Source: a virus
Lineage: Duplodnaviria; Heunggongvirae; Uroviricota; Caudoviricetes
IMG/VR virus record: IMGVR_UViG_2690316064_000002
DNA length: 21,765 bases
Strand: one strand, 5' to 3'
Below, piece after piece: positions 2,660-18,822 of this stretch (positions are counted from its first letter, which is position 1; every line of letters begins with the position of its first letter). Both the position numbers and the translations under genes were made by a program. The notes beneath the pieces were generated by a model. The model searched no databases. It had not been told where the DNA came from and was given only the letters and a program-made list of their open reading frames with translations.

Positions 2660-3018
2660 ACGTTCTCCAGTTCGGTGATTTTTATTCCAAGCCGTCCGCC
2701 TGGTACTTTCACACCACGAATTACGCGAATGTCATCGAATTGCTCGTCGTCTTCCGCAAATCCGGCGTGGATAAGGGAGTCGAGTAAACCTTTCAGGATG
2801 TTATCGAGGTCGCGGCGGCGGGAGTCTGGAACGTCTGCTATGACTTTGATGCGGAGTCGTGATTTGGTGAAAATATCTAACTTGAGTTGGTGGATGATTT
2901 GCTGAACGTCTTTTCGGTATTTCTGGCCTTTATCGCTGATGTAGTATTGGCTTCCCCGTCTTCGCCAGTAGGTATTCACCGACGGCGGGTATGGAAGCAC
3001 AAACTGATATTCGTTCAT
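2656..3018 (-). CDS. rusA: RusA-family Holliday-junction resolvase
   Basis: 120 aa with RusA-like motifs (LPYPPSVNTYWRRRG..., DVPDSRRRDLDNILKGLLDSL...GGRLGIKITEL); overlapping stop/start with neighbours. Confidence 0.88.
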   Translation of the reverse strand: MNEYQFVLPYPPSVNTYWRRRGSQYYISDKGQKYRKDVQQIIHQLKLDIFTKSRLRIKVIADVPDSRRRDLDNILKGLLDSLIHAGFAEDDEQFDDIRVIRGVKVPGGRLGIKITELENV

Positions 3019-3305
3019 GACTTAATCTTCCCCTCCTTCAGCAGTATCGCCTGCGTCCTGATTACGCCTTCGAGGTGGTAAAGTCTGGCGTCTTTGTTGT
3101 CGAGATTATGGGTGCGTCTGTCGATTTCATCGTGACACGCGCTACAAGCCCATGCGCCGATCAGGTCTTCAGGCTTCATTCCAGTTCCGCAAATTCCAGC
3201 CATCCGGTAATGTGCCAGAACTGTAGTTTCAGGATTGCCATTGCATATGCCGTAAATACGAACCTGGCATTCTCTGCCGCGTGCTTCTTTGCGTAGGTTA
3301 GCCAT
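3015..3305 (-). CDS. ybcO: YbcO-like protein (DUF1364, putative nuclease)
   Basis: 96 aa; ARGRECQVRIYGICNGNPETTVLAHYR...CSACHDEIDRRTH resembles DLP12 YbcO; same gene order as DLP12 (ybcO-rusA). Confidence 0.7.
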   Translation of the reverse strand: MANLRKEARGRECQVRIYGICNGNPETTVLAHYRMAGICGTGMKPEDLIGAWACSACHDEIDRRTHNLDNKDARLYHLEGVIRTQAILLKEGKIKS

Positions 3306-4018
3306 TAAGCAGCCTCCCCTGTTACTTTCAGCATTCCGTTATCGAGCAGCTTTCTGGTCAGCCACTGTTGACCACGCCCGGTGATTTTTGTGGTGAACGA
3401 TATCTGTATTCCGTGATTTGTGTTGACCGCTGTTTCTTTCACTGTGAAATAGCCGCGCTCCATATATTCCTGCATTGGCACATTTCGCCGGGAACCTGAA
3501 GCAATAAGGATTTTGTGATCACGCATCCACGCAAACAGTTTGTTTGGACCAATACCAACAACCTTTGCATAGTTTCCAATCAAAATTCCGCTGGCCTCGC
3601 CAACGCGATCGGCAAACTCAACTTTAGGTGCGGCAATTGCGAGCTGGTTTTCTAGTTGCATTTTCTGCTCAGCAAGATCAGCAGCAAGGCGTAACGCTTC
3701 TGGTAGCGTTTTTGGGATATTAACCGCAGCTTCTTCAAGCTCTCGCCAACGGTCAACAAGACGAGCGGTGAATTCCGGCGACAACTGGGCAACGACAATA
3801 ATGCTGTCGCGCTTACCTTGTTCTCCTTCGAAGATGTAATAGCTTACCGGTCGGCCTGCGGTGGGCTTCTCCCCCATTGGGGGAAAAGCTATTACACCTC
3901 GTCCCGCCAGTCGTTCAATAGATTGTTTCACCTTGTCATGACGACTTCCCACCAACTCAGCGATTTCAATGCTGGTCATTTTGATGGCGTTGCTATTTAT
4001 CAGCTCATTCATTGTCAT
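3305..4018 (-). CDS. Rha-family phage regulatory protein with C-terminal antirepressor (KilAC/ANT-like) domain
   Basis: 237 aa; N-terminus MTSIEIAELVGSRHDKVKQSIERLAGRGVI is a typical Rha N-domain; the C-terminal half resembles antirepressor C-domains; SD GAGAGG upstream. Confidence 0.75.
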   Translation of the reverse strand: MTMNELINSNAIKMTSIEIAELVGSRHDKVKQSIERLAGRGVIAFPPMGEKPTAGRPVSYYIFEGEQGKRDSIIVVAQLSPEFTARLVDRWRELEEAAVNIPKTLPEALRLAADLAEQKMQLENQLAIAAPKVEFADRVGEASGILIGNYAKVVGIGPNKLFAWMRDHKILIASGSRRNVPMQEYMERGYFTVKETAVNTNHGIQISFTTKITGRGQQWLTRKLLDNGMLKVTGEAA

Positions 4019-4042
4019 GTCCTCTCATATTGAAAATTCAGC

Positions 4043-4073
4043 AATAAAAAACCCAGCCGAAGCTGGGTTTGTT
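4043..4073 (-). terminator. Intrinsic terminator (CCCAGC-CGAA-GCTGGG hairpin flanked by A/T runs; potentially bidirectional)
   Basis: Minus-strand hairpin followed by UUUUUUAUU; lies between the P63C-like gene and rha. Confidence 0.6.
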
Positions 4074-4135
4074 AAGTTGTCAATGGTCAGTAGTAATGCA
4101 GTGAAGGAGGTAAACTTACGCTGAAGGATTTGTAC

Positions 4136-4156
4136 AAAAAAACCACCTGAAGGTGG
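4136..4156 (-). terminator. Intrinsic terminator (CCACC-TGAA-GGTGG hairpin plus U7) 8 nt after the P63C-like gene stop
   Basis: Plus-strand AAAAAAA-CCACCTGAAGGTGG; on the minus strand the hairpin is followed by seven U. Confidence 0.6.
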
Positions 4157-4163
4157 GTTACTG

Positions 4164-5177
4164 TTACTTGTCTGAATCATCCAGTTCGTCTGTTTTCACA
4201 TCCTCAAACCTTGGATGCAGGCGATTCATTTTTGCAATAAAATCTGAATAGTCGTTAGATAGCTTCATAATCGTAACGGTTGATGACAGATGCTCTCTTA
4301 ATTTTTGATATCCAATATTTGGCGTCAGCCCCTGAAACAACTTTGTACCTTTTGAGGCCTTTACGTTCTGCTTTTTAAGCTCCTCAAGGATGTTTGGTGC
4401 CAATCTCTTGTAGACGATATCATTTGTCAAAACGCCAAAATACTGAGGCCGGAAGCGGGGATTTTCCGGCGGGTATTCTAAGCCCCTTAACCTGAAAAGC
4501 TCTTCATAATAATCAGCAGGAAATGTTGTAATATAAGGTTGAATTTCCTTTGCGACAAAGGCCTCGAGTATTTTGGCGAGCGCATCTTTTTCTCTATCTC
4601 GCTGGTACCCCGTCGCTTCATCAACAAGCGCTATTATTCCGACTTTAGCTAATGAGCGCACCAGAATTTCAGCTTTCTTGGCTGTCTCTAACTGGTTTGG
4701 CCTGGTGATAGCGCCTGCCTCTCTTGCCTTTAAATAAACATCGCAGACAAGAGGTATTATGGATGCGTCATAACCTTCCTGGACGGAGCCAGTAATCGTC
4801 TTGTATTTGACCTTATTGATCACATCCATAACATCTTGATTTATATATTTTTTAAGGTTTGCAGCATCCATAAAAGCGGGCATATTGATCACCCCCTCTT
4901 CTTGAGGTGCTCTACCCCCTCTTTGTGGTCGGCCAAATGCTTTAAAAACAGAAGCTTGTGATATGATACGCCGTCCATTTTCGAGAACCGCGACATCTAA
5001 TTCCGCATCACCGATCTTTAACTTTCCCTCATTCGCAGATACGGGCAATAAAGCTTTTTCTTTTTTTGCGGCAACAGCCTTTCTTGAGGATTCTTTTCTT
5101 TGCTCTGCTGTCATTTTTGCCGCGCGTGCCTTACCGCCTTTGGCCTTCCCACTAACATCATCATTTTTCATGAGCAT
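4164..5177 (-). CDS. P63C-domain-like phage protein (basic N-terminal region plus conserved C-terminal domain); start uncertain
   Basis: Track ORF 4164..5231 begins at a TTG; likely start is an internal ATG (MLMKNDDVSG..., 5177). C-terminal region TFPADYYEELFRLRGLEYPPENPRFRPQYFGVLTNDIVYKRL... matches my memory of the P63C domain (assignment from memory). Confidence 0.55.
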   Translation of the reverse strand: MLMKNDDVSGKAKGGKARAAKMTAEQRKESSRKAVAAKKEKALLPVSANEGKLKIGDAELDVAVLENGRRIISQASVFKAFGRPQRGGRAPQEEGVINMPAFMDAANLKKYINQDVMDVINKVKYKTITGSVQEGYDASIIPLVCDVYLKAREAGAITRPNQLETAKKAEILVRSLAKVGIIALVDEATGYQRDREKDALAKILEAFVAKEIQPYITTFPADYYEELFRLRGLEYPPENPRFRPQYFGVLTNDIVYKRLAPNILEELKKQNVKASKGTKLFQGLTPNIGYQKLREHLSSTVTIMKLSNDYSDFIAKMNRLHPRFEDVKTDELDDSDK

Positions 5178-5202
5178 ATCTCGTGTTGTGATTGATAAGT
5201 CA

Positions 5203-5249
5203 ATCATACACATGCACGTTGTAACGTGCAATATTTAAATATGCACGTA
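5203..5249 (-). promoter_or_regulatory. Candidate promoter (-35 TTGCAC, 17 bp, -10 TATGAT) overlapped by an operator-like array of three TGCACGT(T/A) half-sites
   Basis: 18-bp palindrome TGCACGTT-gt-AACGTGCA (5213-5230) plus a third copy TGCACGTA (5242-5249); minus-strand -35 at 5231-5226 and -10 at 5208-5203. Confidence 0.35.
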
Positions 5250-5394
5250 AATTGCGAATCAGATAATGAGGAGACTTTCTCCCCCTTGCACTGACATCAT
5301 GGTATTCTGCTCAAAACTAAATTTCTGGAGCGTTTCGTTGGAAGGTATTTGCAGTTTTCGCAGATTATGTCGGTGATGCTTCGTCGCTGTCGTC

Positions 5395-5805
5395 TCATTC
5401 GTACCTCCTGTCGGTAAATCTGACACCCTGACCAATAGCCCAGGCTGTTGTGTACTCGATCAGACTTGCCATACGCTTCACGCTCATCTGCGCGCTGCTT
5501 TCGCGAATGTTGACGTATTCGCCTTCAAGCCCGGGCAAAACATCAGCTTCCTGCTTTGTTGCCACTGCATGACCGCTAATCAACAAAACCTTCCATTGTT
5601 CTGGTTTTAACCACTTATCGCACCATTGAACCTGACGTGCGATATCCGCCAGCATCGCGTGAAATTTTGCGTTCTGGTCAAGGTTGCGCTTGTAGTCAGT
5701 AATGCGGATGGTGACTGGCTTGTCTTTATCGAGAGGAGTTGCGAGGATGGCGTTGATTGCGGCTTGCTGTTGTTGCTTAGTTCGGAGGAAGATTGTTTGC
5801 TTCAT
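5395..5805 (-). CDS. ninB: NinB-family protein (lambda Orf/NinB-like recombination mediator), divergent from lambda NinB
   Basis: 136 aa; shared pattern with lambda NinB (QQ.AI.A, KP, RNLDQN.K, RQV.W...WL..E.WK); strong SD GAAGGAG; start 2 nt after the upstream gene stop. Confidence 0.65.
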
Positions 5806-7425: not shown

Positions 7426-8321
7426 AAATCCACCCCGTAAATCCAGTCAGTGTTTGTCAGGTCGAGTTTTGGTTTTCCAGCTGTCACGCCAGCCTGTTGC
7501 TTGTTACGGTTGATTTCGAGCTGGGTCCACTTGTCGCGGAGTTTGGCCGGACTTAGCACGTTACCGGACCAGAAGTTGTCCTGGCATGCCCAGCGGAACA
7601 GCACGCACATGTCGCGGTGGTTACGTCCGTCACGTTCACGCATCAGGCGGATATCGTTAGCCCACCCTGCAAAATTCGGTTTTCTGGCTGATGGTGCGAT
7701 GGTCTTCACCATGTCAAACATCCACTCTGCGGCGGTCAGGTCTTCTGCTGTTCCCCACTTGCTGCCGCTCTGAATTGCAGCATCCGGTTTAACCACAGAA
7801 AGATCGTTTTCTGGCTGGTCAGAGGATTCGCCAGAATTCTCGGACGAATAATCTTTTCTTTTTTCTTTTGTAATAGTGTCTTTTGTGTCCCCCTGTTTTG
7901 AGGGATAGCAATCCCCCAATTTGAGGGATGTTTTATCCCTCGTTTTAGGGGATTTTCCCTCGTTTTGAGGGATACACCATTCTGAGATGTTTTTATTTGG
8001 TCCAAACATGCCGCCTTGCTGCTTGATAATATTCATTCTGACGAGTTCTAACTTGGCTTCATTGCACCGTTTGACAGGTAACTTTGTAATCTCGCTAAGT
8101 TGAGAATCGGTGATTCTGTCCATTGGTTTATTCCACCCATAGGTTTTACGCAGAATGGCAAGCAGCACTTTAAACTGTCGCTTGGTCAGATCTGCGCCTG
8201 AATAAGCCTCAAGCAGCATATTTGATAGTCTGGCGTAACCATCATCGAGATCTGCCACATTACGCTCCTGTTTGGCAAAGTTACCTCTGCAGAAGTTGAG
8301 TATTTTGGCTGTATTTGTCAT
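7422..8321 (-). CDS. O: Replication initiator O
   Basis: 299 aa beginning MTNTAKILNFCRGNFAKQERNVADLDDGYARLSNMLLEAY..., matching lambda O; contains the ori iterons internally. Confidence 0.95.
   Translation of the reverse strand: MTNTAKILNFCRGNFAKQERNVADLDDGYARLSNMLLEAYSGADLTKRQFKVLLAILRKTYGWNKPMDRITDSQLSEITKLPVKRCNEAKLELVRMNIIKQQGGMFGPNKNISEWCIPQNEGKSPKTRDKTSLKLGDCYPSKQGDTKDTITKEKRKDYSSENSGESSDQPENDLSVVKPDAAIQSGSKWGTAEDLTAAEWMFDMVKTIAPSARKPNFAGWANDIRLMRERDGRNHRDMCVLFRWACQDNFWSGNVLSPAKLRDKWTQLEINRNKQQAGVTAGKPKLDLTNTDWIYGVDL
7845..7975. repeat. ori-lambda: four about 19-bp iterons (O-binding sites) plus adjacent AT-rich region, inside the O gene
   Basis: Tandem TCCCCCTGTTTTGAGGGATA / ATCCCCCAATTTGAGGGATG / TATCCCTCGTTTTAGGGGAT / TTCCCTCGTTTTGAGGGATA next to the A/T-rich stretch CTTTTCTTTTTTCTTTTGTAATAG. 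Confidence 0.88.
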
Positions 8322-8324
8322 AAT
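8296..8324 (+). promoter_or_regulatory. po-like promoter for oop RNA (-35 TTGAGT, 17 bp, -10 CATAAT)
   Basis: Hexamers at 8296-8301 and 8319-8324, positioned just upstream of the oop-like sequence. Confidence 0.45.
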
Positions 8325-8331
8325 GCCCCCT

Positions 8332-8407
8332 GTAGATTGATCCAGTAATTCCCTCAGAATTGCATATCAATTTGCTTAAAATCCTCGGTGGCGGCCGGGG
8401 ATTTTTT
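8332..8407 (+). ncRNA. oop: oop-like antisense RNA overlapping the 3' end of cII
   Basis: TGTAGATTGATCCAGTAATTCCCTCAG... resembles lambda oop (GUUGAUAGAUCCAGUAAUGACCUCAG...); ends in a CCUCGG/CCGGGG hairpin plus U6 (8383-8407); antisense to the cII stop at 8354. Confidence 0.55.
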
Positions 8408-8650
8408 CTTTGTGATTTCAGCAAGCGCATACTTAAAAGCCCTGCTAATCGGACTGATGTCTGATGCCATTCCGAAAGCACACAAGACCGAAGCAATAAA
8501 TCTCCAGTCCGTTCTGCTTATCTTCGATTCATGACAGCCAATCATCTTTGCCAGACCGCGCTGGGTAAGCGTTGATAGGTTGATGAGTAAATCTGTTTCT
8601 GCGCGATCAACGTCACGCTGTGATAGTTTGCTGTAACTTGTTCGTTCCAT
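8354..8650 (-). CDS. cII: CII-like transcriptional activator, divergent from lambda cII
   Basis: 98 aa; C-terminal pattern KKKSPAATEDFKQIDMQF parallels lambda cII (KKRPAATERSEQIQMEF) but the body differs; sits in the cII position between cro and O. Confidence 0.75.
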   Translation of the reverse strand: MERTSYSKLSQRDVDRAETDLLINLSTLTQRGLAKMIGCHESKISRTDWRFIASVLCAFGMASDISPISRAFKYALAEITKKKSPAATEDFKQIDMQF

Positions 8651-8661
8651 TTCTTAAGATT
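8628..8661 (+). promoter_or_regulatory. pRE-like CII-dependent promoter (TTGC-N6-TTGT repeat and AAGATT -10), directed toward cI across the cII start
   Basis: TTGCtgtaacTTGT...AAGATT has the same architecture as lambda pRE (TTGCgtttgtTTGC...AAGTAT) and spans the cII start codon. Confidence 0.4.
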
Positions 8662-8735
8662 TCCAATAGTGAATAGTTAGTTGAAAGGTATGCGTGGAAA
8701 CGCATATGGCCTTAGTTGGTCAGATATCTTGGGAC

Positions 8736-8750
8736 TCGCTTTGTCAGCGA
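8736..8750 (-). promoter_or_regulatory. nutR boxB hairpin, P22-type (GACAA pentaloop)
   Basis: Minus-strand UCGCUGACAAAGCGA between cro and cII; it is a near-copy of the nutL boxB at 11447-11461, and the GACAA-loop form is what I recall for P22 rather than lambda. Confidence 0.5.
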
Positions 8751-8788
8751 CGTAGGACGAATGTCCATTGTGAAAATAGCGGTGTTAC

Positions 8789-8998
<210 letters not shown>

Positions 8999-9015
8999 TT
9001 AGTACATGCAACCAT

Positions 9016-9083
9016 TATCACCGCTAGAGGTAAAATAGTCAACACGCACGGTGTTAGATATTTATCCCTTGCGGTGATAGATT
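9016..9083. promoter_or_regulatory. Right operator: oR1 (9016-9032), oR2 (9040-9056), oR3 (9062-9078) with divergent pR (-10 at 9014-9019, -35 at 9037-9042, minus strand) and pRM (-35 TAGATA, -10 TAGATT at 9077-9082, plus strand)
   Basis: oR2 and oR3 are identical to the lambda 17-mers as I recall them; oR1 differs at one base (see findings). cI starts at 9090 directly at the pRM start region (leaderless arrangement as in lambda). Confidence 0.9.
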
Positions 9084-9086
9084 TAA

Positions 9087-9803
<717 letters not shown>

Positions 9804-9880
9804 GGCCAGCAACGGATCACAACAAACACATGGGGCGGCGGATTAAGGGTGATGGAGAATCGAAATAAGTTGAGGTCAAC

Positions 9881-10036
9881 ATGAACACGTTCAGCATAAT
9901 CGCGATACCTTTTTTTGCCCTTTCAGTGGTTCTGTTGACTCTTGGCGCTACCAGGAAGAACCAAGCCAGCTTCATCGTTGGCGGCGTGTTTATGGCGTCA
10001 TGCGTGGTTAATGCCATTATCGGCATGTCTCTTTGA
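9881..10036 (+). CDS. Hypothetical small membrane peptide (51 aa, two hydrophobic segments); first gene of the rex-position cassette
   Basis: ATG at 9881 preceded by GAGG; MNTFSIIAIPFFALSVVLLTLGATRKNQASFIVGGVFMASCVVNAIIGMSL. Below the track length cut-off; it conflicts with the 69-aa minus-strand track ORF, which I consider spurious. Confidence 0.4.
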   Translation: MNTFSIIAIPFFALSVVLLTLGATRKNQASFIVGGVFMASCVVNAIIGMSL

Positions 10037-10228
10037 GCGCTATGAGATCAGGCATCCTCGTTACTTTGTCATGTGTGACAGCCTGGTATGCACTCTGCGA
10101 GCTTTGATGTGGTTTACCACTTTAATAGTCACCGTATCACTAAACTGATTAGCTTTACTCATACTCTTGTGGATTCGCTATTTCTGATGTCAATGCAAAA
10201 AAATACTAAGGAAACAAAAAGGATACTT

Positions 10229-10495
10229 ATGTCAGATAACACTATTAAAATCATACCTCAGCACATGACCGCCACATCAGTTCTTATTACGCCTGATCGT
10301 GCTGAAACAATCATTACTTTTTACCGCCATGAATTTGAGCATCACATGCAGTCTGATGAGCAAGGAAAGAATAGCTTCCAAGTAAAAGTTGAGTTGACCC
10401 CTAACATGTCAGTCTCAATGAGCCCGGATCAAGCTGTTGCATTAGTAAAATCATTACAGGTAGCTCTCAGGGATAATGGGCTATGGAAAGACTGA
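10229..10495 (+). CDS. Hypothetical 88-aa soluble protein (rex-position cassette); alternative upstream start at 10088
   Basis: ATG at 10229 with AAGGA 7 nt upstream; the track's longer 135-aa version (from 10088) lacks a recognisable SD. No family recognised. Confidence 0.5.
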   Translation: MSDNTIKIIPQHMTATSVLITPDRAETIITFYRHEFEHHMQSDEQGKNSFQVKVELTPNMSVSMSPDQAVALVKSLQVALRDNGLWKD

Positions 10496-11133
10496 AGCCA
10501 GTTTCTTCAGTTCAACCTACCTCAGGAATAACATCATCAGTTCTTCCAAGTATTATAGTTAGTGCAACCCTAGCAGCGACAACCGTTTCTCCTTATGGGG
10601 ATCCATCTCAGTACCAAAGTATTGGTATTGATGCTAAGGTATCAAATAGAGTTTCATACGCCATGGACGAAACGGGTTTGCGCCCAAGTAAGGAAGATGT
10701 AGCGATGAAGAGTGATACCCTGGAGGTAAGCGTGAGCGGAATGTCCAGAGAAGAACTTGACGCAAAGCTTTCACAAAACAAATCAGAGGTAGAGTCTATT
10801 GCTGCGGAAATGCGTCGCGAATCAGCTGACTTTAAAACCTATTATACTCAGCAATTTTCTTCTATTGAGAGAGGTATTGCTGAAATTAAAGGTGAAATCG
10901 GCGGTTTGAAAACGGGACTTACAACGACTCAGTGGGCGATGGCCGTTGGCTTGACTTTAGTTACTGTGATTCTGTCTGGCGTGATGTTAGCCTCAAGTTG
11001 GATTATCTCCGGCAATGACAAGTCACCATCAGTAACCAGCCCGGCTCCAATTATAATACAGGTACCGACACAGCAACCATTAACGAGCGCTCCAACTAAC
11101 CAATCGTCATCACAACAAGCTCCTAAGCAATAA
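10483..11133 (+). CDS. Hypothetical membrane-anchored protein: N-terminal soluble/coiled-coil region, one TM helix, C-terminal Pro/Ser/Thr/Gln-rich tail (rex-position cassette)
   Basis: Start overlaps the upstream stop (ATGGAAAGACTGA), indicating translational coupling. Helical heptad-like stretch SREELDAKLSQNKSEVESIAAEMRRESADFK; TM TTTQWAMAVGLTLVTVILSGVMLASSWIISG; tail SPAPIIIQVPTQQPLTSAPTNQSSSQQAPKQ. Confidence 0.6.
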   Translation: MERLKPVSSVQPTSGITSSVLPSIIVSATLAATTVSPYGDPSQYQSIGIDAKVSNRVSYAMDETGLRPSKEDVAMKSDTLEVSVSGMSREELDAKLSQNKSEVESIAAEMRRESADFKTYYTQQFSSIERGIAEIKGEIGGLKTGLTTTQWAMAVGLTLVTVILSGVMLASSWIISGNDKSPSVTSPAPIIIQVPTQQPLTSAPTNQSSSQQAPKQ

Positions 11134-11138
11134 ATAAA

Positions 11139-11165
11139 CCCGGCCACCGCGCCGGGTTTTCTTTG
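11139..11165 (+). terminator. Strong intrinsic terminator ending the cI-distal lysogenic operon (timm-like)
   Basis: CCCGGC-CACCGC-GCCGGG hairpin followed by TTTTCTTTG, 6 nt after the stop of the 216-aa gene and before oL3. Confidence 0.7.
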
Positions 11166-11316
11166 CCTCACGTTCGCCCCAAAACACATAACCAATTGTA
11201 TTTATTTGAAAATTAATAGATACAACTCACTAAACATCGCAATTCAGATCTCTCGATCACCTCCCAAGCCACACACCCCTGCAAAAAAATAAATCTATAT
11301 AAAAAACATACAGATA

Positions 11317-11378
11317 ACCATCTGCGGTGATAAATTATCTCTGGCGGTGTTGACATAAATACCACTGGCGGTGATACT
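11317..11378 (+). promoter_or_regulatory. Left operator/promoter: oL3 (11317-11333), oL2 (11336-11352), oL1 (11360-11376), pL -35 TTGACA (11350-11355) and -10 GATACT (11373-11378)
   Basis: TATCTCTGGCGGTGTTGACATAAATACCACTGGCGGTGATACT is the canonical lambda oL/pL sequence; similarity to lambda ends about 20 bp downstream of the -10. Confidence 0.92.
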
Positions 11379-11446
11379 AAACACATCAGCAGGACGCACT
11401 ACTCACCAGGGCGGTGAATATACAACGATTCGAATATGAATCTACG

Positions 11447-11461
11447 GCGCTGACAAAGCGC
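11447..11461 (+). promoter_or_regulatory. nutL boxB hairpin, P22-type (GCGCUGACAAAGCGC)
   Basis: Perfect 5-bp stem with GACAA loop in the pL leader; paired with a P22-like N protein downstream. Confidence 0.55.
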
Positions 11462-11626
11462 AATAACCAAAGTGAACTTTGGGGTGTGGTGAAGGGTTCA
11501 TGGACGGGAATATGTCGCACGTAAAGCGGCGAGGCCTGCGGGACTATTGCCGAATTGAAGTAGGCCGAAACAGGTCGAAATGGGTCTCCCACCTACCACA
11601 CCACCAAAGTTCATCAGGAGGTCTAT

Positions 11627-12010
11627 ATGACACGCAGAACTCAGTTCAAAGGCAATTCACGTTCTCGTCGTCGTGAGCGTTTAAAGGCAAAGGCATTAGC
11701 TAACGGCGTACTGGCCCGCGAAGAAGCAATAAGTTCAGAAGTATTACACCGCCCTACTCTAAGCAGAGCGCAGATTCAGGCTAAAGGTACTCACGAAACG
11801 CCTGAGCGCATAGAAGACGCTAAGCCAATTAAGTTCATTGCACAGGACGTGATCTGGCAACAGAAAGAATACAGACGCAATCTGGAGCGAGCGGCCATTG
11901 TGTACGCGAATGAGTTTGGACATAAGCAACCAGAAACTGGTGTATGTCTTCCAAACGTAGCCATTTACGCGGCAGGATACCGGAAATCAAAACAACTGAC
12001 AGCCAGGTAA
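11627..12010 (+). CDS. N: N-family transcription antiterminator, P22 gp24-like (not lambda N)
   Basis: 127 aa; arginine-rich motif near the N-terminus (NSRSRRRERLKAKALA) and C-terminal LPNVAIYAAGYRKSKQLTAR resembling the P22 gene 24 protein end; SD AGGAGG at 11615-11620. Confidence 0.8.
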   Translation: MTRRTQFKGNSRSRRRERLKAKALANGVLAREEAISSEVLHRPTLSRAQIQAKGTHETPERIEDAKPIKFIAQDVIWQQKEYRRNLERAAIVYANEFGHKQPETGVCLPNVAIYAAGYRKSKQLTAR

Positions 12011-12013
12011 GTG

Positions 12014-12238
12014 ATGAATCAGACATACATTCCATCATGCTTGAGAAATCTGCCAAAGCAGAAAGCAAAGCCCCGCAAGCAAGCCATAAAGGACGCTAAG
12101 GCAGAGGTTATTGATCAAGCAATACAATTGCTCAGGAAGGAGTTAAGAAGTGGCAAGCTCGAAGGAATGATGATGCCCTATCAGCGCGGATATCTATCGG
12201 CGATTAGTAAGTTGGAAGTATTGAAGAGTGAATTATGA
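12014..12238 (+). CDS. Hypothetical basic 74-aa protein immediately downstream of N
   Basis: ATG at 12014 (GTG at 12011) abutting the N stop, AGGT upstream; predicted helical; no family recognised. Occupies the interval where lambda, by my mapping, has roughly 0.4 kb more sequence. Confidence 0.4.
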   Translation: MNQTYIPSCLRNLPKQKAKPRKQAIKDAKAEVIDQAIQLLRKELRSGKLEGMMMPYQRGYLSAISKLEVLKSEL

Positions 12239-12300
12239 ACTATCTGGAATTTCCGGATGGTTCATTGTTTTGGCAGCAAACCACTTATTTGAGGTGAGAT

Positions 12301-12387
12301 ATGGAAGAAGAATTTGAAGAGTTCGAAGAGCATCCTCAGGATGTGATGGAACAATACCAGGACTATCCGTATGACTGCGACTATTGA
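12301..12387 (+). CDS. orf28-like small acidic ORF (MEEEFEEFEEHPQDVMEQYQDYPYDCDY)
   Basis: 28-aa ORF with GAGGTGAG SD; overlaps the ral start by 17 nt, as the lambda orf28/ral pair does in my recollection. Confidence 0.45.
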   Translation: MEEEFEEFEEHPQDVMEQYQDYPYDCDY

Positions 12388-12468
12388 TAAGAATCAATGG
12401 TGTGGGCAATACGAACGACGGCAATGATTGTCAGAGAACTTGGTAAACAGAACAACAAAGCTGCCTGA
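12371..12468 (+). pseudogene. ral: ral (restriction alleviation) remnant with an internal out-of-frame deletion of about 103 bp
   Basis: N-terminus MTATIDKNQWCGQ matches lambda Ral, then the frame changes and stops at 12425; the Ral C-terminus WAIRTTAMIVRELGKQNNKAA is present in another frame ending at 12468. Both parts join at a shared TGGGCAAT. Confidence 0.5.
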
Positions 12469-12604
12469 TAGTGGCCTTTATTTTTGGCATAAATAACAGA
12501 ATAAACACTGCACTGTGTATTCATTCCAACGAGTGAATACACGGAGCAATGTCGCTCGTAACTAAACAGGAGCCGACTTGTTCTGATTATTGGAAATCTT
12601 CTTT

Positions 12605-12630
12605 GCCCTCCAGTGTGAGGGCGATTTTTT
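12605..12630 (+). terminator. Intrinsic terminator (GCCCTC-CAGTGT-GAGGGC plus T6) upstream of ea10; tL-type
   Basis: 6-bp GC stem, 6-nt loop, followed by GATTTTTTAT. Confidence 0.6.
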
Positions 12631-12650
12631 ATCTATGAGGATATGAACAG

Positions 12651-13019
12651 ATGTCAAACATCAAAAAATACATCATTGATTACGACTGGAAAGCATCAAT
12701 AGAAATTGAAATCGACCATGACGTAATGACAGAGGAAAAACTTCACCAGATTAATAATTTCTGGTCAGACTCTGAATACCGACTCAATAAACACGGCTCT
12801 GTATTAAATGCTGTATTAATCATGCTGGCGCAATATGCTCTGCTTATAGCAATTTCGAAAGACTTAAATGCATATGGTGTTGTTTGTGAGTTCGACTGGG
12901 ATGATGGAAATGGTCAGGAAGGATGGCCTCCAATGGATGGTAGTGAAGGAATAAGAATTACCGATATCGATACATCAGGAATATTTGATTCAGATGATAT
13001 GACTATCAAGGCCGCCTGA
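12651..13019 (+). CDS. ea10: Ea10-like early protein (122 aa)
   Basis: Same length and position as lambda ea10 between ral and cIII; recognised by position and length, sequence recollection is weaker. Confidence 0.7.
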   Translation: MSNIKKYIIDYDWKASIEIEIDHDVMTEEKLHQINNFWSDSEYRLNKHGSVLNAVLIMLAQYALLIAISKDLNAYGVVCEFDWDDGNGQEGWPPMDGSEGIRITDIDTSGIFDSDDMTIKAA

Positions 13020-13091
13020 GTGCGGTTTTACCGCATACCAATAACGCTTCACTCGAGGCGTTTTTCGTTATGTATAAATAAGGAGCACACC

Positions 13092-13256
13092 ATGCAATAT
13101 GCCATTGCAGGGTGGCCTGTTGCTGGCTGCCCTTCCGAATCTTTACTTGAACGAATCACCCGTAAATTACGTGACGGATGGAAACGCCTTATCGACATAC
13201 TTAATCAGCCAGGAGTCCCAAAGAATGGATCAAACACTTATGGCTATCCAGACTAA
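13092..13256 (+). CDS. cIII: CIII (FtsH/HflB inhibitor)
   Basis: 54 aa [54 protein letters not shown] = lambda cIII; the track ORF begins earlier in the same frame. Confidence 0.9.
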   Translation: MQYAIAGWPVAGCPSESLLERITRKLRDGWKRLIDILNQPGVPKNGSNTYGYPD

Positions 13257-13368
13257 ATTCACTATCGCCACTTTTATTGGCGATGAAAAGATGTTTCGTG
13301 AAGCCGTCGACGCTTATAAAAAATGGATATTAATGCTGAAACTGAGATCAAGCAAAAGCATTCACTAA
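13225..13368 (+). CDS. kil: Kil (host-killing FtsZ inhibitor)
   Basis: 47 aa [47 protein letters not shown]; overlaps cIII by 32 nt and gam by 46 nt, as in lambda. Confidence 0.8.
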
Positions 13369-13739
13369 CCCCCTTTCCTGTTTTCCTAATCAGCCTGGCA
13401 TTTCGCGGGCGATATTTTCACAGCTATTTCAGGAGTTCAGCCATGAACGCTTATTACATTCAGGATCGTCTTGAGGCTCAGAGCTGGGCGCGTCACTACC
13501 AGCAGATCGCCCGTGAAGAGAAAGAGGCAGAACTGGCAGACGACATGGAAAAAGGCCTGCCCCAGCACCTGTTTGAATCGCTATGCATCGATCATTTGCA
13601 ACGCCACGGGGCCAGCAAAAAAGCCATTACCCGTGCGTTTGATGACGATGTTGGGTTTCAGGAGCGCATGGCAGAACACATCCGGTACATGGTTGAAACC
13701 ATTGCTCACCACCAGGTTGATATTGATTCAGAGGTATAA
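13323..13739 (+). CDS. gam: Gam (RecBCD inhibitor); internal start at 13443 (MNAYYIQ..., SD AGGAG) gives the 98-aa GamS form
   Basis: 138-aa translation matches lambda Gam; the strong internal SD supports the short form as the major product. Confidence 0.93.
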
Positions 13740-13744
13740 AACGG

Positions 13745-14530
13745 ATGAGTACAGCACTCGCAACGCTGGCAGGGAAGCTGGCTGAACGTGTCGGCATGGA
13801 TTCTGTCGACCCACAGGAACTGATCACCACTCTTCGCCAGACGGCATTTAAAGGTGATGCCAGCGATGCGCAGTTCATCGCATTGTTGATCGTCGCCAAC
13901 CAGTACGGCCTTAATCCGTGGACGAAAGAAATTTACGCCTTCCCTGATAAGCAGAACGGCATTGTTCCGGTGGTGGGCGTTGATGGCTGGTCCCGCATCA
14001 TCAATGAAAACCAGCAGTTTGATGGCATGGACTTTGAGCAGGACAATGAATCCTGTACATGCCGGATTTACCGCAAGGACCGCAATCATCCGATCTGCGT
14101 TACCGAGTGGATGGATGAATGCCGCCGCGAACCATTCAAAACCCGCGAAAGCAGAGAAATCACGGGGCCGTGGCAGTCGCATCCCAAACGGATGTTACGG
14201 CATAAAGCCATGATTCAGTGTGCCCGTCTCGCCTTCGGATTTGCTGGTATCTATGACAAGGATGAAGCCGAGCGCATTGTCGAAAATACCGCATACACTG
14301 CAGAACGTCAGCCGGAACGCGACATCACTCCGGTTAACGATGAAACCATGCAGGAGATTAACACTCTGCTGATTGCCCTGGATAAAACATGGGATGACGA
14401 CTTATTGCCGCTCTGTTCCCAGATATTTCGCCGCGACATTCGCGCATCGTCAGAACTGACACAGGCCGAAGCAGTGAAAGCTCTTGGATTCCTGAAACAG
14501 AAAGCCACTGAGCAGAAGGTGGCTGCATGA
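13745..14530 (+). CDS. bet: Bet (Red-beta single-strand annealing protein)
   Basis: 261 aa [59 protein letters not shown]... = lambda Beta. Confidence 0.95.
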
Positions 14531-15207
14531 CACCGGACATTATCCTGCAGCGTACCGGAATCGACGTGAGAGCTGTCGAACAGGGGGATGATGCGTGGCA
14601 CAAATTACGGCTCGGCGTCATCACCGCTTCAGAAGTTCACAATGTGATAGCAAAGCCCCGCTCAGGAAAGAAGTGGCCTGACATGAAAATGTCCTACTTC
14701 CACACCCTGCTGGCTGAGGTTTGCACCGGTGTGGCTCCGGAAGTTAATGCTAAGGCGCTGGCCTGGGGAAAACAGTACGAGAACGACGCCAGAGCCCTGT
14801 TTGAGTTCACTTCCGGCGTGAATGTTACTGAATCCCCGATCATCTATCGCGACGAAAGTATGCGCACCGCCTGCTCTCCCGATGGTTTATGCAGTGACGG
14901 CAACGGCCTTGAACTGAAATGCCCGTTTACCTCCCGGGATTTCATGAAATTCCGGCTCGGTGGTTTCGAGGCCATAAAGTCGGCTTACATGGCCCAGGTG
15001 CAGTACAGCATGTGGGTAACGCGAAAAGATGCCTGGTACTTTGCCAACTATGACCCACGAATGAAGCGTGAAGGCCTGCATTATGTCGTGGTTGAGCGGG
15101 ATGAAAATTACATGGCGAGTTTTGACGAGATGGTGCCGGAGTTCATCGAAAAAATGGACGAGGCACTGGCTGAAATTGGTTTTGCATTTGGGGAGCAATG
15201 GCGATGA
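14527..15207 (+). CDS. exo: Exo (lambda 5'-3' exonuclease, Red-alpha)
   Basis: 226 aa [65 protein letters not shown]... = lambda Exo; start overlaps the bet stop. Confidence 0.95.
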
Positions 15208-15386
15208 AGCATCCTCACGATAATATCCGGGTAGGCACGATCACTTTCGTCTACTCCGTTACAAAGCGAGGCTGGGTATTTCCCGGCCTTTCTGTTATCC
15301 GAAATCCCCTGAAAGCACAGCGGCTGGCTGAGGAGATAAATAATAAACGAGGGGCTGTATGCACAAAGCATCTCCTGTTGAGTTAA
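15204..15386 (+). CDS. orf60a-like small protein
   Basis: 60 aa [29 protein letters not shown]...; ATG overlaps the exo stop (ATGA). The track begins 2 codons earlier. Confidence 0.65.
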
Positions 15387-15550
15387 GAACGAGCATTGAG
15401 ATGGCACATAGCCTTGCTCAAATTGGAGTCAGGTTTGTGCCAATACCAGTAGAAACAGACGAAGAATTTCATACGTTAGCCACATCCCTTTCACAAAAGC
15501 TGGAAATGATGGTGGCGAAAGCAGAAGCAGATGAGAGAGACCAGGTATGA
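15359..15550 (+). CDS. orf63-like small protein
   Basis: 63-aa ORF in the conserved position after orf60a. Confidence 0.65.
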   Translation: MHKASPVELRTSIEMAHSLAQIGVRFVPIPVETDEEFHTLATSLSQKLEMMVAKAEADERDQV

Positions 15551-15630
15551 CAACCACGGAATGCATTTTTCTGGCAGCGGGCTTCATATTCTGTGTGCTT
15601 ATGCTTGCCGACATGGGACTTGTTCAATGA
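15547..15630 (+). CDS. Hypothetical 27-aa hydrophobic peptide (MTTTECIFLAAGFIFCVLMLADMGLVQ), translationally coupled on both sides
   Basis: ATG overlaps the orf63 stop (ATGA) and its stop overlaps the next ATG (ATGA); below the track length cut-off. Confidence 0.3.
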   Translation: MTTTECIFLAAGFIFCVLMLADMGLVQ

Positions 15631-15842
15631 CACCTCAGCAGGAAAACGCCCTTCGCAGCATTGCCCGTCAGGCTAATTCTGAAATCAAAAAAGCCAGACA
15701 GCAGTTTCCGGATAAAAACGTCGATGACATTTGCCGTAGCGTACTGAAGAAGCACCGCGAAACGGTAACGCTGATGGGATTCACACCGACTCATTTAAGC
15801 CTGGCAATCGGCATGTTAAACGGCGTCTTTAAGGAACGATGA
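15627..15842 (+). CDS. orf61-like small protein (71 aa)
   Basis: ATG at 15627 (MTPQQENALRSIARQANSEIKKARQQFPDKN...); the track ORF begins upstream in the same frame. Confidence 0.55.
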   Translation: MTPQQENALRSIARQANSEIKKARQQFPDKNVDDICRSVLKKHRETVTLMGFTPTHLSLAIGMLNGVFKER

Positions 15843-15940
15843 ACATGAAAAGCAAAATCATCAGGGAGCTACAGGCTCCTTTTTTATTATTCGCATTCAC
15901 CCTCAAGCGTATTAACCAACAATTCAGGGATTAATGGAAG

Positions 15941-16162
15941 ATGGCAGACATCATTGATTCAGCATCAGAAATTGAAGAATTACAGCGCAACACAGCAATA
16001 AAAATGCGCCGCCTGAACCACCAGGCTATATCTGCCACTCATTGTTGTGAGTGTGGCGATCCGATAGATGAACGAAGACGCCTGGTCGTTCAGGGTTGTC
16101 GGACTTGTGCAAGTTGCCAGGAGGATCTGGAGCTTATCAGTAAACAGAGAGGTTCGAAGTGA
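15941..16162 (+). CDS. TraR/DksA-family C4 zinc-finger protein (lambda orf73-like)
   Basis: 73 aa with CxxC-17aa-CxxC (CCECGDPIDERRRLVVQGCRTCASCQ). Confidence 0.8.
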   Translation: MADIIDSASEIEELQRNTAIKMRRLNHQAISATHCCECGDPIDERRRLVVQGCRTCASCQEDLELISKQRGSK

Positions 16163-16566
16163 GCGAAATTAACTCTCAGGCACTGCGTGAAGCGGCAGAG
16201 AAAGCCGGTGAAGATAAGTGGCAGGCTAAAAAAATAAATGGTGATTTTTTCGTTATTCGTCACGGTAGTTATACAAGACAGCATGGCTACACATCGTATC
16301 AACCCATTGCGGAGATTGATTGTAAGCCAGTCCGGGATTTTGTTGCCAAGGCTAATCCGGCTACCGTGCTGGAATTACTGGATGAACTGGAAGCAGCAAA
16401 AAAGCGCATTGCAGAACTGGAAGCGCGGGAAATACTGCTCCCGGAACGTAGCAGCATGCTTCATCGAACAGATTTTCACGATGATTACCAAACGGTAATG
16501 GCATACAAAGTTTCTGAAGTCATCGATGCAATCCGCGCTACTGGCATTCGCATCAAAGGAGAGTGA
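16159..16566 (+). CDS. Ea22-like protein (shorter variant), GTG start
   Basis: N-terminus MSEINSQALREAAE and C-terminus GIRIKGE as in lambda Ea22 by recollection; central coiled-coil segment ELLDELEAAKKRIAELEARE. Confidence 0.55.
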   Translation: MSEINSQALREAAEKAGEDKWQAKKINGDFFVIRHGSYTRQHGYTSYQPIAEIDCKPVRDFVAKANPATVLELLDELEAAKKRIAELEAREILLPERSSMLHRTDFHDDYQTVMAYKVSEVIDAIRATGIRIKGE

Positions 16567-16567
16567 G

Positions 16568-17323
16568 ATGATTCACTACCACGGTGGGCCTATTACTCCT
16601 GATACGTGCGCAATGAGAGCATGGAAAGGGCGACATGCGTTTATCAGTTTTGCGCATTCAGGCCAGATCAATCTCGCGGCTGAATACTGTCAGTCGTTCG
16701 CGCTGGACAACGGTGCATTCACCGCCTGGAAAGCAGCTGGCAAAAACAAAATCGACTGGAGCGATTACTACGAGTTTGTTGCTCGCTGGAAGAATCACCC
16801 AGGATTCGATTTTGCCATTATCCCGGATATTATTGATGGCGGAGAGGAGGAAAATGATGCGCTTCTGAATGAGTGGCCTCACGGAAAACTAGCTGGCGTT
16901 CCAGTGTGGCACATGAATGAAAGTGACGCGCGATTTATTCATTTGTGCAATGAGTTTCCGCGAGTGGCTATCGGTAGTTGTGGCGACTATGACGTAAAGC
17001 GCCCAACTCTTGCGGTAGCCAGAATGAAAGACCTGATTCGTCACATTGTTGATGGGCATGGTCAGCCGGTTACGAAACTACATGGATTGCGCATGTTAAA
17101 TCCGCTGATATTCACAAAATTACCCTTAGCCAGCGCAGATAGTACGAACGTCGCTCGAAACATCGGTATTGATAAAGCCTGGTCTGGGGCTTATGCACCT
17201 GCAAGTAAAGAGACACGCGCAGCATTAATGGTAGAACGGATTGAGGCACACAATAGCCCTGGTTCTCTTGCGTATTGTGAACAACGCGACCGCTTTGAAA
17301 TGCAATTGCAACTAGCAGTTTAA
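16568..17323 (+). CDS. Hypothetical 251-aa protein of the early-left accessory region
   Basis: ATG at 16568 with AAGGAG upstream (track starts earlier at 16526); MIHYHGGPITPDTCAMRAWKGRHAFISFAHSGQ...; no family recognised. Confidence 0.55.
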   Translation: MIHYHGGPITPDTCAMRAWKGRHAFISFAHSGQINLAAEYCQSFALDNGAFTAWKAAGKNKIDWSDYYEFVARWKNHPGFDFAIIPDIIDGGEEENDALLNEWPHGKLAGVPVWHMNESDARFIHLCNEFPRVAIGSCGDYDVKRPTLAVARMKDLIRHIVDGHGQPVTKLHGLRMLNPLIFTKLPLASADSTNVARNIGIDKAWSGAYAPASKETRAALMVERIEAHNSPGSLAYCEQRDRFEMQLQLAV

Positions 17324-17333
17324 GGACTAACAA

Positions 17334-18131
17334 ATGACCACTATTACCAAAGAACGTATTGAATTGTTCATTAAAAATCCGCTTGAAAACGGGCTTACTC
17401 GTGGCGAACAAATGGAACTGGCACGAATTGCACTGGCATCACTGGAACGCGAACTGATTCGCCACGAGCATGCCAAATGGTCTGACTCCACATTTGGCTG
17501 CGTTGGCCCCATTGGTCCACTGAAACACCTCTCAAAAGAGGCTCTGGAAGCCGCAGCCGAACCAGACGATCTCAGCTAGTGGGCTGATATGCATTTCCTG
17601 TTGTGGGATGCACAGCGCCGTGCTGGCATCAGCGATGCTGAAATTACCGCTGCTATGGAAGATAAATTGAAGATCAACATGGAGCGCCAGTGGCCTGAAC
17701 CAAAAGATGGTGAGCCTCGCTTGCACATTAAAGAACCCGGCAACTCTCCGGTAATTCCGGATGGTTTATCCACGGTATGCGCTGAGGCTTATCAGGTTGT
17801 AGGAGTTATGGCAGATGCGCTTGGTGTATTCGGTGATGCAGCAGTACAGAAAGTTCTGGATAACCTGTCACAGCAAAAACTTGTTCACAGAGATGTGCTG
17901 CCGTTCTCGCTTCCGGTGACTCCGGATGGTTGGATAAGCTGTAGTGAGCGAATGCCGAAAGAAACGGGTGACATTATTGTTGTTTCGGATGGCATTGTAA
18001 TGTCCGGGATTTCTTATTCTCGTCGTGACGGGTTCTATATAGCCGCATTGGAGTACGACGACGATGAGCCAATTGGCGGTGTAACCCACTGGATGCCTCT
18101 ACCAGAACCGCCTCGATTAAAGGAGCTATAA
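17334..18131 (+). pseudogene. DUF550/DUF551-like accessory gene interrupted by an in-frame amber codon (TAG at 17577-17579)
   Basis: Track ORFs 17334..17579 and 17589..18131 are in the same frame, separated only by TAG (...EPDDLS * WADMHFLLWDAQ...). The C-terminal WISCSERMPKE...GVTHWMPLPEPP looks like DUF551 (domain names from memory). Confidence 0.5.
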
Positions 18132-18245
18132 TAGTGAACTATTATATCTATTTGTATTAAAAGAGTTTTTATAAAATAAATCTCCCAAAGCATGTAAAAA
18201 CACTGTTAATCTTAACGTGTGTGAAACGTGAAGAGAGGTGTTGAA

Positions 18246-18527
18246 ATGAGCATTCATGATTTGTGTGAAGATCAAGAGCAATGGGCTATGCAGACCCTTA
18301 TGGGATCAGGAGTTCTTGCAAGGTGCAGAATCCATAACGATGTAATTTTAGACAGCGGAAATGATGCTTCTTCTGCTTATAAATTAGGAACTTACCTATA
18401 TCAAAAAGATAATAGCTGCAACTTATTCAATACTCTTACTGAAGCCCGCGACGCAATAAAGGATGCATATGAATCGTATTGTGGGATCGATGATTGCCCA
18501 CAATGCTCAAAATACATTGACGATTAA
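18246..18527 (+). CDS. ea8.5: Ea8.5-like protein (93 aa)
   Basis: MSIHDLCEDQEQWAMQTLMGSGVLARCRIHNDV... with GAGAGG 7 nt upstream of the ATG at 18246; the track begins 6 codons earlier at a GTG. Confidence 0.75.
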   Translation: MSIHDLCEDQEQWAMQTLMGSGVLARCRIHNDVILDSGNDASSAYKLGTYLYQKDNSCNLFNTLTEARDAIKDAYESYCGIDDCPQCSKYIDD

Positions 18528-18615
18528 TAATATGAACAAGTAACTATCCTCGCACTCGCGGGGATTTCTTTTATCTGAACTCGCTACGGCGAGTTTTGTT
18601 TTATGGCGATGATAA

Positions 18616-18783
18616 ATGCACTTCCGAGTTACAGGTGAATGGAATGGAGAACCATTCAACAGAGTTATCGAAGCCGAGAACATCAGCGACTGCTATGACC
18701 ACTGGATGCTGTGGGCGCAGATAGCACATGCAGACGTAACCAATATTCGAATTGAAGAACTGAAAGAACACCAAGCCGCCTGA
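18616..18783 (+). CDS. orf55-like small protein (MHFRVTGEWNGEPFNRVIEAENISDCYDHWMLWAQIAHADVTNIRIEELKEHQAA)
   Basis: 55-aa ORF below the track cut-off; ends in a hairpin/T-tract. Confidence 0.45.
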   Translation: MHFRVTGEWNGEPFNRVIEAENISDCYDHWMLWAQIAHADVTNIRIEELKEHQAA

Positions 18784-18797
18784 TGGCGGTTTTTTCT
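18775..18797 (+). terminator. Hairpin plus T6 after orf55 (CCGCC-TGAT-GGCGG-TTTTTTCTT)
   Basis: Stem-loop incorporates the orf55 stop codon and is followed by a T-run. Confidence 0.45.
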
Positions 18798-18822
18798 TGC
18801 GTGTAATTGCGGAGACTTTGCG

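Follow-up and report, generated by a model that had tools for sequence, protein, structure and literature searches.

What has taken the place of rexA-rexB in a prophage whose immunity region is otherwise close to that of phage lambda, and what might it do for the lysogen? The question is raised by IMG/VR virus record IMGVR_UViG_2690316064_000002, a 21,765-nucleotide (nt) stretch of Caudoviricetes DNA (hereafter the window), in which a 1,362-base segment lying downstream of the gene for the cI repressor carries three open reading frames (ORFs) where lambda carries its two rex genes. The segment consists of genes 49 and 48 of phage HK97 and, in front of this pair, a captured gene of host type for a small membrane protein of 51 amino acids (aa), here called orf51. 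As to function, which we infer solely from position and architecture, we tentatively favour the view, at somewhat short of an even chance, that 49-48 may be a lysogen-expressed, Rex-like two-component exclusion module in which a cytoplasmic protein is teamed with a tail-anchored membrane effector. This view derives from the location of the pair in a hotspot, from the union of a membrane part that is conserved with a partner that is hypervariable, and from the horizontal mobility of the whole.

The segment in the rexA-rexB slot

Homology to lambda (blastn) covers window positions 8930-9799 at 98.2% identity and is found again at 11137-11417, which corresponds to lambda 35826-35550 at 89.7%. The left break falls 4 nt before the cI stop codon and homology resumes just past the position of rexB; hence, the replaced stretch corresponds exactly to rexA-rexB. 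The 1.3 kb between the two breakpoints hold the three ORFs, all co-directional with cI and bounded by a Timm-type terminator, and neither blastp nor phmmer detects similarity between them and RexA or RexB (best E value against RexA, 0.39). A first-pass annotation, made from the sequence alone, had claimed that unrelated genes fill the slot in this orientation, and this was borne out, as were its coordinates for cI and for the 51-, 88- and 216-aa ORFs. Its presentation of the cassette as a new find did not survive. The segment is 99.6% identical to phage HK97, 99.9% to HK225 and 99.7% to Lambdavirus PDP110P1, and its two larger ORFs are HK97 genes 49 and 48 (NP_037734 and NP_037733), equivalent to gp43 and gp42 of HK225. 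The HK97 genome with which gp49 and gp48 were deposited is reportedly that of Juhala et al. 2000. The replacement of rexAB in a phage with lambda immunity, and its sequence, were thus already known, and it is the gene system itself that is uncharacterised: in a literature search that took in neither Juhala et al. 2000 nor Cumby et al. 2012 nor Degnan et al. 2007, studies of what HK97 gp48 or gp49 does did not turn up. The features of the segment and its borders are as follows.

9090-9803, plus strand: cI repressor gene (HTH_3 and Peptidase_S24 domains), first gene of the immunity operon
9804-9854, plus strand: 51-nt linker 3' of the cI stop, 100% identical to mEp234, HK106 and mEp506
9881-10036, plus strand: orf51, 51-aa small membrane protein with two predicted transmembrane (TM) segments; GAGG Shine-Dalgarno 5 nt before the ATG
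10037-10228, plus strand: 192-nt spacer, 92.1% identical to a Citrobacter copy, with a 10-bp indel between them
10229-10495, plus strand: HK97 gp49 homologue, 88 aa, acidic, soluble; full-length match to phrog_26809 (E = 2.7e-62)
10483-11133, plus strand: HK97 gp48 homologue, 216 aa; match to phrog_5820 (E = 9.6e-69, residues 20-210)
10738-10890, plus strand: gp48 residues 86-136, conserved amphipathic helix, predicted cytoplasmic (R.EL.A.L..NKAEV...A..MR..MA..R)
10933-11010, plus strand: gp48 residues 151-176, single TM helix, from hydropathy and the alignment of relatives
11011-11130, plus strand: gp48 residues 177-216, Pro/Ser/Thr/Gln-rich tail with PIIIQVP motif, predicted periplasmic
11136-11164, plus strand: intrinsic terminator, homologue of lambda Timm; 9-bp GC-rich stem, then UUUUCUUU
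11317-11378, plus strand: oL3-oL1 operators and pL, the latter directed toward N (11627-12010) and away from the cassette

The surroundings of the segment are less purely lambda than had been supposed. The cI protein, described at first as essentially wild-type lambda, differs from lambda cI by two changes (T3A and K71N) and is identical to HK97 cI. The lambda-like part of the immunity region extends only from cro/oR to oL/pL, with pL (TTGACA-17-GATACT) at 11350-11378 and the end of lambda homology at 11417; the N gene that follows (127 aa) is of the HK97/933W type, not the lambda type. For an immunity region, the GC content is unremarkable.

The cassette is found in 52 of 5,426 complete Escherichia coli genomes, at 99% identity or more in each and always annotated as "hypothetical". 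In some genomes it is part of what is left, after heavy decay, of a prophage at the argW/intS site, as in E. coli N2409 (positions 7521-18887 of that locus), where int, portal and cII are partial and ral is frameshifted; the integrity of cI, gp49 and gp48 in this remnant fits selection for immunity-operon genes. A Citrobacter copy, with 97% protein identity, sits behind a different repressor, and so does the HK225 copy. The segment in common with the Citrobacter copies starts at approximately 9851.

The first-pass annotation also treated the cassette as a single unit, and here the comparison with Citrobacter speaks for a composite origin: orf51 is 89.7% identical to its Citrobacter counterpart and the spacer 92.1%, versus 96.3% for gp49 and 96.6% for gp48. 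This greater divergence suggests that orf51 and the spacer, the left part of the module, have a history separate from that of gp49 and gp48. The hydrophobic nature of the 51-aa peptide was confirmed by hydropathy, with two segments at residues 1-23 and 28-51, and a database search placed it in a family of 36 clusters, with identities of 67-98% and, in almost every case, a length of exactly 51 aa. Its relatives in Atlantibacter, Lelliottia and Klebsiella michiganensis are chromosomal and lie outside prophages, with homology confined to the ORF itself; within E. coli, orf51 is seen only together with the cassette. Citrobacter copies of the cassette do carry it, 13 nt after a RacR-like repressor gene, and it is missing from the Klebsiella, Yersinia, Kosakonia and HK244 versions of the pair. 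The 16 substitutions between the window and Citrobacter orf51 include 11 at codon position 3, the differing codons comprising nine synonymous and four conservative changes. Judged by this record, orf51 is a real gene, separately derived and an optional add-on to the 49-48 pair.

An antisense ORF of 69 aa (9817-10026), annotated in HK225, was considered for the same region and rejected in favour of the plus-strand orf51, which has 36 clusters of near-fixed length, a Shine-Dalgarno sequence and the more conservative substitutions. The minus-strand genes gp45 and gp44, annotated in HK225 opposite the region of the 51-aa protein (3014-3359 of that locus), are probably mis-annotations. In K. michiganensis, the orf51 relative begins 3 nt after a dinI-like gene, a neighbour that hints at SOS control of this chromosomal homologue. 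HK97 and most of the RefSeq E. coli genomes with orf51 have no annotation for it, which illustrates more generally how small membrane proteins, though conserved, are left unannotated in most genomes.

The prophage of the window is itself a mosaic lambda-like element that adjoins ybhC at the lambda attachment site, and it is not HK97. Its nin region holds two minus-strand genes (3305-5231) that are not in lambda itself: one at 3305-4018, antirepressor-like and with a KilAC domain, and one at 4164-5231 with a P63C domain, both named after the RefSeq annotation of the closest genome. That closest complete genome, E. coli Z1323HEC0108, bears the same prophage with an IS1203 element (IS3 family) truncating N (11942-13423 of that locus), an insertion that the window does not have.

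The gp48 family and its variable partners

For gp48, a word-indexed search returned only 11 clusters, and a profile scan of genome contigs with the resulting 11-sequence alignment found three loci; an exhaustive profile search recovered 199 representatives with a cut-off of E <= 1e-3, of which 104 lie at E <= 1e-10. The family thus amounts to about 200 clusters at 50% identity, and the conservation counts given below were taken from 86 aligned relatives. All 86 match phrog_5820, a family of unknown function; of the 150 listed, nearly all are 91-279 aa long, and the named members, from Serratia, Leclercia and Yersinia, are without exception called "hypothetical protein".

Within the family a constant architecture is combined with a very uneven conservation. 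An N-terminal region of approximately 40-130 residues is almost unconserved, with a mean top-residue frequency of 0.13 over residues 1-85, versus 0.55 over the conserved helix at residues 86-136. After the helix come coiled-coil repeats that contain Gly (KIDGK.D.VDG...) and vary in number; the TM helix opens with a near-invariant Gln, and exactly one C-terminal TM segment is present in 86 of 86 relatives. Past the TM segment comes a Pro/Gln-rich tail, with a median length of 31 residues and often with a P-I-I-I-Q-V-P motif. In the window this tail (residues 177-216) is 62.5% Pro/Ser/Thr/Gln, in agreement with the single TM helix and rich tail ascribed to the 216-aa protein at first sight, and its prolines P189 and P195 are conserved in 97% and 83% of relatives. 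Such a protein would be expected to reside in the inner membrane with its N terminus in and its C terminus out, the bulk of it lying in the cytoplasm and the tail in the periplasm.

This predicted topology has a bearing on one alternative to a Rex-like module, namely superinfection exclusion by a block of DNA entry, in which the periplasmic PIIIQVP tail of gp48 would hinder the injection conduit or the tape-measure protein of the incoming phage, after the models of HK97 gp15, P22 SieA, Ltp and Sie2009. The inner-membrane architecture suits such a role, as does the placement of the conserved motif, with its P189, on the predicted periplasmic side, and a Xenorhabdus homologue of gp48 adjoins arc/ant. 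The vicinity of arc/ant is roughly the location of sieA in P22. On the other hand, approximately 150 of the 216 residues of gp48, including its most conserved helix, are predicted to be cytoplasmic, and the protein comes with an obligate partner devoid of signal peptide and TM segment, which is more machinery than a passive periplasmic block needs. Known injection blockers made by prophages are likewise small inner-membrane proteins (PMC10461980), but neither Pfam, PHROGs nor PADLOC reveals similarity of the pair to any Sie family. We therefore regard an entry block as unlikely, and a Rex-like module remains the reading that we prefer for this architecture.

The partner, gp49, has neither a signal peptide nor a TM segment, and its reading frame overlaps that of gp48 by 13 nt (ATGGAAAGACTGA), as had been noticed from the start. 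A 135-aa in-frame extension of gp49 (10088-10495) was rejected, as it is broken by the 10-bp indel in the Citrobacter copy. In Klebsiella, the gp49 homologue (P0015) is 66% identical to that of the window and gp48 34% identical, and the same 13-nt overlap is present; the retention of the overlap in so diverged a pair indicates that gp49-gp48 is a conserved unit. Every copy of gp48 examined has a small ORF upstream, which in most cases runs into the start of gp48, and these partners are far less uniform than the membrane protein. The gp49-type partners and those of Yersinia, Kosakonia and Buttiauxella show a weak colinear relation (hhalign probability 63%, E = 7e-5), and other partners differ in kind, among them the 144-aa HK24405 and zinc-ribbon-like ORFs. 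Nine partner and neighbour ORFs searched against Pfam, NCBIfam and PADLOC gave nothing above threshold; gp49 itself has no match to a DNA-binding domain in Pfam and none to PDB sequences.

Comparison with the Citrobacter copy also addresses whether these genes matter at all. Differing codons are synonymous in 15 cases and non-synonymous in six for gp48, and in six and four for gp49, with substitutions concentrated at codon position 3; on this codon-level evidence, gp49, gp48 and orf51 are under purifying selection. It could still be argued that the ORFs are real and constitute evolutionary baggage, devoid of a selected function in the lysogen, inasmuch as they contain no known domain and are always annotated as hypothetical. 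The selection seen against the Citrobacter copy, the retention of pair and overlap down to 34% identity and the recurrence of the same architecture in some 200 clusters all oppose this notion, and we hold it to be barely credible.

Coupling to repressor genes and candidate functions

Of the 15 independent contexts of gp48-family genes, 12 have the order repressor, small partner ORF, gp48 homologue. They are found in E. coli, Citrobacter, Klebsiella Rac-like prophages, Yersinia intermedia and Y. aleksiciae (where an N-like gene comes after the pair), Kosakonia, Sodalis, Buttiauxella and three metagenome contigs, including one that bears a gp48 member as remote as E ~2e-10. The repressors that precede the pair are of unrelated kinds, comprising lambda-type and other S24 cI proteins, RacR-like helix-turn-helix proteins and the HK225 repressor. 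The position of gp48-family genes behind a repressor in 12 of 15 contexts provides strong indirect support for expression in the lysogen. The earlier characterization of the cI-to-N interval as a known slot also holds: PMC7067206 and PMC8585504, citing Degnan et al. 2007, give it as a mosaic hotspot in which accessory and defence genes are found. One context of another kind is that of Xenorhabdus sp. KK7.4 (4652-5755 of that locus), in which the gp48 homologue has a Cys-rich 111-aa upstream ORF and adjoins arc and a KilA-N/P22_AR_C antirepressor gene, in an immI-like setting.

The signals around the cassette suggest the route of this expression. No terminator-like site with a T-tract was found in a scan between cI and the cassette, where the sole plus-strand call, at 10011-10026, amounts to no more than a weak stem of 5 bp (z = -0.77); a simple sigma-70-like consensus scan of 9804-10228 gave no promoter above threshold, and an Rfam search of 9700-11700 no match. 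At the right end, the hairpin at 11136-11159 with its U-tract folds at -15.4 kcal/mol (z = -3.2) and scores as a terminator on both strands. The strong terminator that had been proposed for the cassette is thus real, but it is not specific to it: it is the homologue of lambda Timm, under which name HK244 annotates its own version, and the hairpin (CCCGGCC...GCCGGG) is conserved as the module's right-hand border in HK225, Citrobacter, Klebsiella and HK244. The same hairpin is kept in Rac-like prophages, where a convergent DUF2767 gene comes next. From its distribution, the hairpin may be a shared recombination joint of the rex slot. A moron, in the sense of Juhala et al. 2000, is said to be an insertion that brings along both a promoter and a terminator; here, the terminator is present but common to the lambda layout, and the consensus scan called no promoter. 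It is more likely that the cassette genes ride on the cI transcript than that they use a promoter of their own. They would then share with cI the promoters pRM and pRE, their transcripts running as far as Timm, and so be made in the lysogen, but not from pL.

The TGTCA-N4-TGACA inverted repeat that had been singled out in the spacer is indeed present at 10067-10080, yet it is not a significant feature: its fold z-score is +0.47, the window contains no second exact copy, and one arm is mutated to TGCCA in the Citrobacter copy. To judge from these comparisons, the repeat is most likely due to chance. This outcome bears on a further proposal, that 49-48 is an addiction pair of the toxin-antitoxin (TA) kind which stabilises the prophage, with gp49 as labile antitoxin, gp48 as membrane toxin and any effect on defence being secondary. 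A small acidic upstream gene overlapping a larger one (by 13 nt, in Klebsiella too) is a layout typical of type II TA systems, and small membrane-active toxins are common. Nonetheless, no promoter or operator of the pair's own was found, the inverted repeat is not conserved, gp49 is without a match to a DNA-binding domain, neither Pfam, NCBIfam nor PADLOC yields a TA-family match, and placement in a repressor operon is atypical for TA modules. We consider an addiction pair very unlikely.

If 49-48 is instead a Rex-like exclusion module, its action might be envisaged as follows. The cytoplasmic gp49 would bind the variable N-terminal region of gp48, and together this fast-evolving partner and N terminus might, by analogy, sense a superinfecting phage. 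The conserved, membrane-anchored part of gp48 could then perturb the inner membrane or block a membrane-linked step, and the infection would be aborted or excluded, protecting the population of lysogens.

Several results weigh against this scheme. Homology links neither gene of the pair to any defence protein, HK97 already has a known exclusion protein in gp15, and the above literature search turned up no report of a phenotype for HK97 genes 48 and 49. Three of the 15 contexts are not directly behind a repressor gene, these being the Xenorhabdus copy and two metagenome contigs with the pair elsewhere in the early region. The first-pass annotation had proposed profile and structure searches; profile searches produced the phrog_5820 and phrog_26809 matches and little else. 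The three ORFs of the window have no match above threshold in Pfam or NCBIfam, nothing in PADLOC, and no match in any of the three databases to known superinfection-exclusion or defence proteins (SieA, SieB, Imm, gp15, Cor). Among the 86 gp48 relatives, the Pfam matches are to generic coiled-coil families (Baculo_PEP_C in 32 and CCDC90-like in 28, then NPV_P10 and DUF1664), PADLOC returns scattered coiled-coil noise, and the gp48 profile against PDB sequences likewise gives coiled-coil noise only (best E = 0.005). AlphaFold2 models of gp49 (3-sequence alignment) and gp48 (11-sequence alignment) reach predicted local distance difference test (pLDDT) scores of just 46.9 and 46.5, too poor for fold comparison, that of gp48 containing only a helix at 89-136 and the TM helix at 146-176.

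A role unrelated to other phages, in lysogenic conversion or phage regulation, also has to be weighed. The pair might act on the host envelope, on stress physiology or, as RexA was recently shown to do, on the lysis-lysogeny switch or induction, for example through a membrane-tethered factor acting on FtsH or on the stability of CII-class proteins. Immunity-operon genes do not always serve defence, as illustrated by Hex of phage 434 (PMC3564112), and RexA and RexB have roles in the switch (bioRxiv 10.1101/2021.04.19.439022). Moreover, the relatives of orf51 are ordinary chromosomal genes, and tail-anchored coiled-coil proteins (CCDC90-like/DUF1640) with non-defence roles are known. Conversely, patchy distribution, swapping among unrelated repressors and a hypervariable partner and N terminus are more typical of conflict systems, and positive evidence for a specific host target is nil. 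A regulatory or conversion role hence seems to us improbable, and we return to exclusion as the preferred function.

Extended to the whole family, the Rex-like reading becomes a broader proposition, which we regard as possible, if on balance doubtful: phrog_5820 with its variable small partner would represent prophage systems for exclusion or abortive infection that have so far escaped notice as a family and are widespread in Enterobacterales. Such a family might, with the same reserve, consist of a tail-anchored coiled-coil effector and rapidly swapped cytoplasmic sensors (of the gp49, 144-aa and zinc-ribbon types). It could also, and no more confidently, be seen as a system hard-wired into the repressor operon, for which HK97 offers a ready genetic model. 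The replacement of rexAB will not in itself surprise a specialist, but the family-wide coupling to repressors and the existence of the HK97 model allow a concrete and cheap test, HK97 being a model phage in which deletion and plating tests are routine. The repressor-N interval of lambdoid prophages is among the most strongly expressed places in the lysogen and has been the source of RexAB, BstA and Stk; the 49-48 pair has no similarity to catalogued defence proteins and is met behind unrelated repressors in at least nine genera. Should it exclude phages, it would add a new type of membrane effector with swappable sensors to the defence repertoire of prophages, and would provide a second, simpler system in which to address the mechanism of Rex. 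Should it exclude none, its tie to repressor genes, strict as it is, would suggest some unknown function in lysogeny itself.

Known systems in the same slot

The closest known counterparts of the segment are those of HK97, HK225 and PDP110P1, in which essentially identical DNA (99.6-99.9% over 1.36 kb) occupies the corresponding place, with the succession of repressor, cassette, terminator and pL. They differ in annotation, HK97 being without an annotated 51-aa ORF and HK225 having antisense ORFs annotated there. A more distant, paralogous counterpart occurs in HK244 and HK542, phages of lambda immunity in which two genes, HK24405 and HK24404, occupy the same slot before the annotated Timm (1920-2971 of the HK542 locus and 1472-2523 of the HK244 locus). 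HK24404, with 206 aa, is a gp48-family member (pairwise E = 6e-12) and has the same layout of helix, TM segment and tail, but it is only ~28% identical to the gp48 of the window; HK24405 (144 aa) has no detectable similarity to gp49, and the set is without the 51-aa gene. At least three fillings of the slot (rexAB, 49-48 and HK24405-04) are thus found behind essentially the same cI.

The CCDC90-like family (PF07798, formerly DUF1640), among others, shares with gp48 the succession of a coiled coil and a C-terminal TM helix. It matches 28 of the 86 gp48 relatives at E < 0.01 (best, 2e-8), and the gp48 of the window at 12.6 bits (E = 0.12), the gathering cut-off being 33.5 bits. A distant relationship is possible; the matches are low-information coiled-coil segments, from which no function is transferable.

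Stk of phage 933W is, according to what Friedman et al. 2011 are said to have described, a lysogen-expressed defence gene directly after the repressor gene. The same position is occupied by BstA in the Salmonella prophage BTP1 (PMC8585504). Both share with 49-48 their location behind a repressor, but they are single large cytoplasmic proteins of unrelated folds, with no membrane component and no sequence similarity to the pair.

With lambda RexA-RexB, the resemblance is one of organization. Like 49-48, the rex genes lie in the slot between the 3' end of cI and Timm, in the same orientation, and in both cases there are two genes, encoding a soluble and an inner-membrane protein that are expected to be made in the lysogen. 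The parts themselves are different. RexB is a 144-aa multi-pass membrane protein and RexA a 279-aa DNA-binding protein, whereas in gp48 one C-terminal TM helix is combined with a long helical region on the predicted cytoplasmic side, and orf51 has two TM segments in 51 aa. The soluble partner gp49, with just 88 aa, is encoded first and in an overlapping reading frame, unlike in RexAB, and the scan of the window found no internal promoter like the pLit of lambda rex.

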